Origin: Escherichia coli
GTDB taxonomy: Bacteria; Pseudomonadota; Gammaproteobacteria; Enterobacterales; Enterobacteriaceae
Length of the DNA stretch: 3,815 nt
NCBI RefSeq assembly: GCF_003334335.1
Contig: NZ_QOWQ01000081.1
Strand: one strand, 5' to 3'
This document shows, piece by piece, positions 803 to 2,536 of the stretch. Under the pieces are notes generated by a model that searched no databases, was not told the origin of the DNA, and worked only from the letters and a program-made list of their open reading frames with translations. Both the position numbers and the translations under genes were made by a program. Numbering within the stretch: position 1 is the first letter of the stretch; every line of letters starts with the position of its first letter.

Positions 803-1690
803 CAGCTTATCCGCATTTTTCAGGTCCGTACGCATGGCATAAGCAGTGCCATTCGTCGTCAGCTTATCAACCGTCAGTGTATGGAATACTTTATTCGCTG
901 CACTTCCTGTAAAATATGTCATACTTCCGGTATTTTTTAACGAGCGAAGTGAGGAGTCTCCTGTCAGTTGCCACCAGGTATTGTTCACAGTGGCAGATGC
1001 AGACGGGGCATGAATTGCACCGCGGTATGCCGTATTAAAACCACTCAGTAATCCGACCGCGAGTCCCCGGGATGCCTTCTCAGACAATATGCCCTCTTTA
1101 CCTGATTCAGTTCCGAAGCTGATTGTGGCCTGTTTATCAGAAATAATATCACCAACAACAGATGCCTGGTCTCTGGCTTTCAGTACTGATGAATCAGACA
1201 TCAGTTTAAATCCGCCATCAGCCATATTGATGGTCGGTAAAAAAGCAGCATCATCTGAATTCACTGGTGTACCGGTAAGCAGAAGGAAAGCGTCACCAAT
1301 ATCAATGCTTCCACTTGTAAACAGCCCTCCCTGAGCGGTCAGCGCTTCTCCTTTATGAATATTCAAGGAGCTGTTTATAAATGACGATGCTTCTGAGAAC
1401 AGGACTGAAGATGAAGAAACATTGATATGACTGTCTTCAGACGTAATCCCGCCACGAAAATTATTGCGGATATCCAGTGCTGATTTTTGCTCCAGAGTGA
1501 TATGCCCTGTATAGGAGGATGTTCCTGCGGCAGCAGATTTCCCTTCAACACTGATGACATCATTACCTGTTCCGTCATTTTTATCAGTAAAGACTGTATC
1601 TCCGCCGATAATAACAGTGCTCTGGTTAACGGCCCTGATATTCCCGTTCATAAATGCATTACGGGACAGACTGATGGACCTAGCATGAGC
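803..1690 (-). pseudogene. Autotransporter (type Va) passenger-domain remnant with pertactin-like C-terminal region; no signal peptide and no beta-barrel translocator
   Basis: The minus-strand ORF 800..1708 is Ser/Thr/Gly/Asn-rich with beta-helix-like repeats (STVIIGGDTVFTDKNDGTGNDVISVEG...). It ends ...NNTWWQLTGDSSLRSLKNTGSMTYFTGSAANKVFHTLTVDKLTTNGTAYAMRTDLKNADKL*, which fits the pertactin-type pattern W.LTGDS.L..L...G...F...F.TLTV..L.G.G.F.M.TDL...D.L found just before autotransporter beta-domains. The frame stops exactly at the IS3-family end. The upstream boundary is uncertain (~1610-1695), where IS903-like sequence takes over. Confidence 0.6.
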
Positions 1691-1695
1691 CAGAA

Positions 1696-2485
1696 ACGCC
1701 TTCATCATGCCCCCAGCACTATTCTGATCTCGCCATTACCACCGTTCTGGTAATTAAACGCGTATTCCGGCGGGCTGTGCAGTGGGTTATTGATTCCATT
1801 TTTGCTCTGATGAACGTTCTTTTTGCTGCCCGGATTACACCTGTATCAGTAAGCGGGCAAAGTCAGTTAATGTCAGTTTCAAAACGTGCACCTGGGAGGA
1901 ATTGCACATCTGGTGATTGATTCCACCGAGCTGAAAGTTTCGGTGAAGGTGAGTGGAAAGTCAAAAATATGGCAAAGAACGGCGTCATACTTGGTCGAAG
2001 CGCCATCTGGTAGTTGACAGCAACACACATGAAATCATCCGCGCAGACCTGTAGCTAAACAACGTGACTGACTCAGAGGTATTCCCCAGGTTAATCCGAC
2101 AGCTCCACCGGAATATCAGGTAGCCGCTGCTGACGGCGCTTACGCCCCCCCCCAGTTTATGTAATGAAGGATTACGTAGTAAGAAAATCTGTGCTCTTAT
2201 CCCTCTGTGAAAAGGAGCAGATTACCGGTCCGCTGAATACGTAGCCCCCCAATCGTGCTGTTGCGAGCCAGCGACTGAGCGGGAGCAATGCCCGGTGGAA
2301 ATAGACAACAGATTACAACTGGCACTCAATAGCGGACGGCTATGTACAGGATAAAACAGCTGTTCAGTGTTTTACTGACATTGCGTGACTACGATGGCCA
2401 GGTTGCAGAGGCACTGGCTATGGAGCACGCCCTGAACAAAATGACGAAGACGGGTATGTCAGAAGCGTGCGAATTGCCTGAAAGC
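1696..2485 (+). pseudogene. IS903-like transposase pseudogene (multiple frameshifts and in-frame stops, lost native stop)
   Basis: Segments in three frames: TPSSCPQHYSDLAITTVLVIKRVFR (from ~1696), IDSIFALMNV, CPDYTCIS, KSVNVSFKT, IAHLVIDSTELKV, KYGKERRHTW.KRHLVVDSNTHEIIRADL*LNNVTDSEVFPRLIRQ, AAADGAY, NRAVASQRLSGSNARWK*TTDYN, TAMYRIKQLF...LTLRDYDGQVAEALAMEHALNKMTKTGM. These are colinear with IS903-type transposases as I recall them. TAG stops interrupt them and a C9 run lies at 2145-2153. The listed ORF 2342..2563 is the C-terminal piece reading through into the terminal repeat. Confidence 0.8.
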
Positions 2486-2518
2486 CAAACCGGATGCAGA
2501 GAGACTCATCCGAAATCT

Positions 2519-2536
2519 GATTTATTCAACAAAGCC
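2519..2536 (-). repeat. IS903-type 18-bp terminal inverted repeat (right end)
   Basis: GATTTATTCAACAAAGCC on the plus strand equals the reverse complement of GGCTTTGTTGAATAAATC. It lies at the expected distance after the transposase C-terminus. Confidence 0.75.

Follow-up and report, generated by a model that had tools for sequence, protein, structure and literature searches.

The window examined here, a 3815-bp stretch of Escherichia coli DNA, is a piece of a chromosomal island of this species, and it contains the decayed remnant of an insertion sequence of the IS903 group (IS5 family). The remnant is a fragment rather than a complete member of this group, because it has no left repeat and its homology begins only at IS position 181. 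It is very probable that an IS903-group copy was inserted, died, drifted neutrally, and was later truncated and fused to a fragment of espI, so that only debris is left now. The locus itself is already known, because RefSeq flags a frameshifted, incomplete IS5-family transposase in dozens of E. coli genomes. In its essentials, the sequence-only reading of this DNA is right, and four small points of it are corrected below. The positions of the features are listed in Table 1.

Table 1. Features of the IS903-group remnant and its left neighbour (positions in the 3815-bp window)
Feature	Position	Strand	Basis or remark
espI internal fragment (passenger region), ~nt 2081-2952 of the 4092-nt gene	803..1674	-	gapless, 97.9% identity
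Junction bases TGGA	1675..1678	.	differ from AGTC, with which espI would continue, and do not clearly fit CAGG of the IS
Remnant of an IS903-group element (IS5 family), corresponding to 181-1057 of a 1057-bp element	1679..2536	+	alignments, NF033579 score, PGAP pseudogene
In-frame stop, TGG>TAG	1681..1683	+	reference-codon alignment
In-frame stop, TCG>TAG	2052-2054	+	reference-codon alignment
Poly-C tract, C9 in the window	2145..2153	+	alignment, cross-genome comparison
In-frame stop, CGA>TGA	2208-2210	+	reference-codon alignment
TAG at a frame-switch boundary (T*PP of the sequence-only reading)	2242-2244	+	alignment
In-frame stop, TGG>TAG (K*TT of the sequence-only reading)	2302-2304	+	reference-codon alignment
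2-bp deletion destroying the GAA codon of the signature glutamate	2335..2336	+	alignments
73-codon ORF, by-product of decay, not annotated as a gene	2342..2563	+	ORF list, alignment, PGAP
Native transposase stop TGA, out of frame for the upstream ORF	2479..2481	+	alignments
Right 18-bp terminal inverted repeat GATTTATTCAACAAAGCC (reverse complement of GGCTTTGTTGAATAAATC), perfect	2519..2536	+	alignment

When positions 1690-2536 of the window are compared with 72,556 plasmids by megablast, 2458 records are matched. The top match shows 80.8% identity at a query coverage of 98% (E = 6e-179), and all top matches are annotated as 'IS5 family transposase'. Three intact 1057-bp references, IS903, IS903B and the copy on the Enterobacter plasmid p7926H (L002), were aligned with the remnant. 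The p7926H copy is bounded by perfect 18-bp inverted repeats, GGCTTTGTTGAATAAATC, and by a 9-bp direct duplication, GATAGGATC. Smith-Waterman and blastn alignments agree that positions 181-1057 of the intact elements correspond to 1679-2536 of the window. The sequence-only reading of this DNA had recognized the IS903-like homology correctly, but had placed its start at 1690, 11 bases to the right of the position (~1679) at which the homology begins. With gaps counted, the remnant is 79.6% identical to the p7926H copy, 79.0% to IS903B of E. coli and 78.1% to IS903; over aligned bases only, the identity is 82%. The alignment with the p7926H copy contains 702 matches, 151 mismatches, 10 deletions (6, 9, 1, 1, 1, 1, 1, 2, 1 and 1 bp) and 2 insertions, one of 4 bp at the C tract and the other of 1 bp within the C6 run at 2245-2250. 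Thus, the comparison with IS903 and its relatives that the same reading had proposed gives 12 indels, 151-164 substitutions across the intact references and a 5' truncation at IS position ~181; the similarity to IS903-group elements is significant, and there is no continuous intact reading frame.

The protein level gives the same family. After correction of its frames, the conceptual protein reaches 159.8 bits with the NCBIfam model NF033579, 'IS5 family transposase' (cutoff 140), and its best matches in a search of 5.8 billion protein clusters are IS5-family transposases with PF01609 and PF13737. Within the 307-aa protein, the transposase pseudogene spans codons ~36-307; the 3' non-coding end follows it. 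According to the ISfinder convention, isoforms share more than about 90% DNA identity or more than 95% protein identity. IS903 and IS903B themselves are rejected as the identity of the remnant, because the DNA identities given above and a protein identity of 72-76% are below the isoform level.

When the reference codons are followed, the transposase frame runs through window frames 1, 3, 2, 1, 3, 2, 3, 1, 2 and 1, with nine switches, and meets four to five stop codons, four of which are in the reference frame and one at a frame-switch boundary. The description of the homology as scattered over all three frames, with TAG stops and small deletions, is therefore accurate. In the intact protein, the signature region is DYNRRSIAETAMYRVK, which fits Y-(2)-R-(3)-E-(6)-K. 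This spacing is typical of DDE transposases of the IS4/IS5 type, and it is the basis on which DYNRRSIAETAMYRVK is read; the catalytic glutamate is assigned from it, because a literature search for the residue numbering of IS903 gave nothing usable. The codon of this glutamate is destroyed by a 2-bp deletion, and the signature arginine is altered to histidine at 2323-2325 (CGC>CAC). Neither the catalytic signature nor the open reading frame of the IS903 group is intact in the remnant.

The 73-codon ORF at the right end is real, but its origin differs from the one first proposed. It consists of the transposase C-terminus (MYRIKQLF...NKMTKTGMS), a frame shift, and flanking DNA beyond the right repeat. 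The sequence-only reading had attributed it to loss of the native stop. The native TGA is kept, however, and the ORF runs beyond it, because the loss of 1 bp from an A run at 2462/2463 has changed the frame.

If the frameshifts and stops were sequencing or assembly errors, a functional IS903-like element would be hidden beneath them. The C tract does differ among assemblies, including three assemblies of the NCTC86 lineage, which indicates that at least one of the lesions is length-unstable or error-prone. However, 52 independently assembled complete genomes are at least 98.9% identical over an 89-bp segment around the C tract, and the loci compared over their full length (L001 and L003) carry every other indel and every stop. 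In addition, the left end is physically absent, and the substitutions are spread flatly across the codon positions. The agreement among genomes refutes an artefact as the source of the lesions, and its probability is practically nil.

The C tract is the only homopolymer of eight or more bases in the window. The sequence-only reading gave its position exactly, but regarded it as simply replacing conserved codons. The tract is instead derived from GACACCCGG by two A>C changes and an insertion of 3-4 C's. Among the 52 complete E. coli genomes with the 89-bp segment, 46 have C8, five have C9 and one has C10, and these lengths are confirmed directly in loci L001, L003 and L007-L009. C8 is thus the common allele and the C9 of the window a minority allele. 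The insertion in C8 is 3 bp long and in frame, and the transposase gene is dead whichever length is present. Assemblies of the NCTC86 lineage disagree with one another at identical flanks, with C9 in CP019778, C8 in LT601384 and C10 in CP117959 ('B-2207'). We infer that B-2207 is the same strain as NCTC86 from their identical IS architecture, among other likenesses.

The length variation is due either to homopolymer errors in long-read assemblies or to fast slippage. That the C8, C9 and C10 alleles reflect real, rapid polymerase slippage at a neutral tract rather than sequencing error is conceivable, but somewhat unlikely. If it is true, the tract would serve as a natural neutral reporter of the homopolymer mutation rate in E. 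coli populations. The tract is also a warning that the length of a poly-C run is unreliable in assemblies. Polymorphism of this kind, seen between genomes and also between assemblies of a single strain lineage, is what a phase-variation switch (contingency locus) controlling a gene would show. However, the tract is located within a pseudogene with eight other frameshifts and several stops, so that no ORF is toggled by it, and the variation may be a long-read homopolymer error. Moreover, the next gene in the direction of the plus strand, encoding an AraC regulator, is convergent, and on the minus strand only the dead espI fragment follows. A phase-variable contingency locus is rejected as extremely improbable, because the length varies but neither strand has an intact gene downstream to be toggled.

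The manner in which the remnant has changed was examined by comparing its coding DNA with that of IS903, IS903B, the p7926H copy and the copies from Serratia, Edwardsiella, Buttiauxella and Plesiomonas, and private changes were counted at sites that do not vary among six intact elements. The remnant has such changes at 23/218, 27/236 and 13/97 sites of the first, second and third codon positions, or 10.6, 11.4 and 13.4%, whereas the intact Serratia, Edwardsiella and Buttiauxella copies have 2-5% at positions 1 and 2 versus 13-27% at position 3. Transitions (42) outnumber transversions (21), GC>AT changes (38) outnumber those in the opposite direction (16), and the indels lean to deletion, with 24 bp lost versus 5 bp gained. 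The flat codon-position pattern is the signature of unconstrained drift at ~11% per site, an estimate that rests on living relatives rather than on the true ancestor, so that some of this figure may instead be the lineage divergence of a functional clade outside the sample. The earlier view of an old inactivated copy agrees with this flat pattern and with the bias of the indels toward deletion.

A protein comparison with 21 intact family members points in the same direction. Of 92 family-invariant columns, 16 are changed in the remnant, versus 0-6 in the intact members. The enterobacterial members are 81-97% identical among themselves, whereas the identity between the remnant and each member is 70-76%, uniformly ~13 points lower. 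At third positions, the distance to IS903B is 0.27 for the remnant versus 0.34-0.37 for the Serratia, Edwardsiella and Buttiauxella copies, and this difference places the remnant as a sister of the IS903/IS903B cluster. When the ~11% of neutral decay is subtracted, the functional ancestor would have been ~92% identical to IS903B, and was probably a close sibling or isoform of IS903B rather than IS903B itself. A closer relative is found neither among the 5.8 billion protein clusters, which contain no intact protein above ~75% identity, nor in E. coli genomes, which give no record between 90% and 99% identity, nor on the plasmids, for which 80.8% is the best match.

The two ends of the remnant differ in their fate. 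At the right end, the terminal repeat matches GGCTTTGTTGAATAAATC at 18 of 18 positions, as the sequence-only reading had stated, and the exact identity to IS903B extends over 27 bp (2510-2536). This 18-mer also delimits the intact elements L002, L012, L015, L016 and L017. A left-end (forward) copy of GGCTTTGTTGAATAAATC is absent from the window. The intact relatives show 9-bp target duplications; the right flank of the remnant is GTCAATAGG, and the left end and the left flank are deleted. The left 180 bp of the IS element are absent, as expected from the earlier observation that the left end is missing, and a fragment of espI stands in their place, with the junction at 1674/1679.

This neighbour had been described as an adhesin remnant. 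It is in fact a fragment of the gene for EspI, a SPATE serine-protease autotransporter, and is 97.9% identical, with no gaps, to the intact espI of strain AUSMDU00014361 (L004); the match ends at 1674. PGAP annotates it as 'serine protease autotransporter EspI', 'missing N-terminus and C-terminus'. A minus-strand ORF of 302 codons (window 800-1708) is a chimera, in which the first ~11 codons run antisense to the IS903 remnant and all others belong to the espI passenger region. Its espI part is still free of stops and indels, and PGAP nonetheless calls it a pseudogene.

The remnant cannot transpose alone, because it has only one end, no N-terminal part of the transposase, nine frameshifts, four to five stops and no codon for the catalytic glutamate. 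It might nevertheless be active in trans, if its right repeat is used by the transposase of a plasmid-borne IS903 or IS903B, or it might recombine with such copies, and thereby rearrange the island. The identity of its terminal 27 bp to IS903B and the great abundance of IS903B on enterobacterial plasmids favour such activity. However, a single end is present, the three listed carrier chromosomes each hold this copy as their only IS903-like one, and the IS903 transposase acts preferentially in cis. For recombination, the remnant offers only ~80% identity to IS903B, with just four exact runs of 22-28 bp. Furthermore, none of the examined loci shows a rearrangement that breaks at the repeat; the variants in them are due to IS66 and IS3 insertions. 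Residual activity in either form is very improbable, and the case for the remnant as a recombination substrate is weak. The remnant is genomic debris that is carried along with the chromosomal island.

The homology, truncation point and lesions of the remnant, its neutral pattern of substitutions and its distribution are observed directly, and the following history is the most economical one consistent with them. An IS903-group copy would have inserted beside the low-GC (30%) region of the AraC regulator. Its transposase gene would then have lost its function, and the copy would have drifted neutrally for a long time, possibly in another host, until ~11% substitutions per site and 12 indels had accumulated. 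A later deletion or rearrangement, with endpoints at IS position ~181 and inside espI, would have removed the first 180 bp, including the left inverted repeat, the promoter region and ~35 codons, and would have created the present junction. The espI fragment has diverged by only 2.1% and is free of indels, which suggests that the fusion is younger than the decay of the IS element. This low divergence, together with the identity of at least 98.9% among 52 E. coli genomes over the 89-bp probe, suggests that both the fusion and the spread in present-day E. coli came long after the decay. Thus, most of the decay had probably taken place before the segment reached present-day E. coli. In each of the 54 E. 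coli genomes that have the AraC region, the sequence is compatible with the presence of the remnant or of a more truncated form of it, and neither an empty site nor a less decayed or fuller copy, which would fix the order of events, is found among them.

Positions 291-3815 of the window are present at 99.7-99.9% identity in dozens of chromosomes when 5,426 complete E. coli genomes are searched by megablast, and the island is carried by about 1% of complete E. coli genomes. In strain RIVM_C040348, the order annotated by PGAP is type I restriction-modification genes, darT/darG, an M48 peptidase gene, an IS600 fragment, the EspI pseudogene, the 'IS5 family transposase' pseudogene, the AraC-family regulator and IS3. 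The IS5-family pseudogene is labelled 'frameshifted; internal stop; incomplete; missing N-terminus and C-terminus'. Outside E. coli, an exact search for a remnant-specific 21-mer, covering representatives of 100,044 species, gives only one chance match and one misbinned E. coli contig. The latter, JAIJJM010000532.1, is a 2.3-kb contig of a 'Collinsella sp.' MAG and is 99.8% identical to window 1576-3815 (L011, 23-2263); almost certainly, this is DNA of E. coli that was binned wrongly. A scan of the window against Rfam matches no RNA family.

Other IS elements have altered the island. In the window, the right end of ISEc43 (IS66 family; 1-290) adjoins the IS600 fragment at 290/291; in NCTC86, ISEc43 with a nested IS110-family ISEc45 is inserted in the IS903 remnant at window 1982/1983, so that this end of ISEc43 meets the remnant at window 1983 (L005, 2782-3000). 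Thus, ISEc43 has been inserted at different points of the island in different strains. The 290/291 junction of the window is found in one piece in no complete genome of the collection. EC24 and MEI4BO-21 have the AraC region and give no match to the 89-bp C-tract probe. In EC24, the IS903 remnant is reduced to about its last 280 bp, which an IS3 copy adjoins (L006, 2516-4027), and the island is therefore still being eroded by other IS elements.

To the right of the remnant, an intact AraC-family regulator of 265 aa is encoded on the minus strand (window 2584-3381) within a segment of 30% GC. It matches no NCBIfam equivalog, the best match being HilD with 78 bits versus a cutoff of 354. Window ~3731-3815 contains the left end of an IS3 copy together with the beginning of its first ORF; in related genomes PGAP annotates an intact IS3 with a programmed frameshift. 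A cluster of ABC-transporter and TolC-family genes lies a few kb past the AraC regulator in related genomes (L001, 14900-19500), with IS3 and IS481 copies and a group II intron maturase gene in between. By analogy, this layout of an AraC regulator with ABC-transporter and TolC genes may recall virulence regulons of the AggR/Aat type.

The locus matters little in itself, because it is a textbook IS pseudogene. It is of use as a stable marker of one island, with its type I restriction-modification genes, DarTG toxin-antitoxin, IS600 fragment, espI fragment and AraC regulator, and as a clean example of neutral decay, with flat codon positions, a GC>AT bias and a deletion bias, that predates the younger rearrangements around it.

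IS903 and IS903B are 1057-bp elements with 18-bp terminal repeats, a 9-bp target duplication and a 307-aa DDE transposase, and their transposase is the nearest relative of that of the remnant at both the nucleotide and the protein level. The remnant resembles them in having the same gene order, collinearity over 181-1057 and an identical right repeat. It differs from them in its amino-acid identity of only 72-76%, the loss of the left 180 bp, the 12 indels, the four to five stops and the loss of the catalytic glutamate. The IS903-group elements of Serratia, Edwardsiella, Buttiauxella and Plesiomonas belong to the same family, and the Serratia and Plesiomonas copies share the terminal repeat. 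However, all of these copies are intact and are farther from the remnant than IS903B at third positions (0.40-0.63 versus 0.27), and the Plesiomonas copy is just 67% identical overall. In kind, the locus resembles the ordinary IS pseudogenes of E. coli pathogenicity and genomic islands: in the PGAP annotation, its truncated and frameshifted transposase gene lies among fragments of other IS elements (IS600, IS66, IS3) and of a virulence gene (espI). The remnant differs from these in nothing material, except that it is more decayed than its neighbours, such as the espI fragment with its 2% divergence and no indels.
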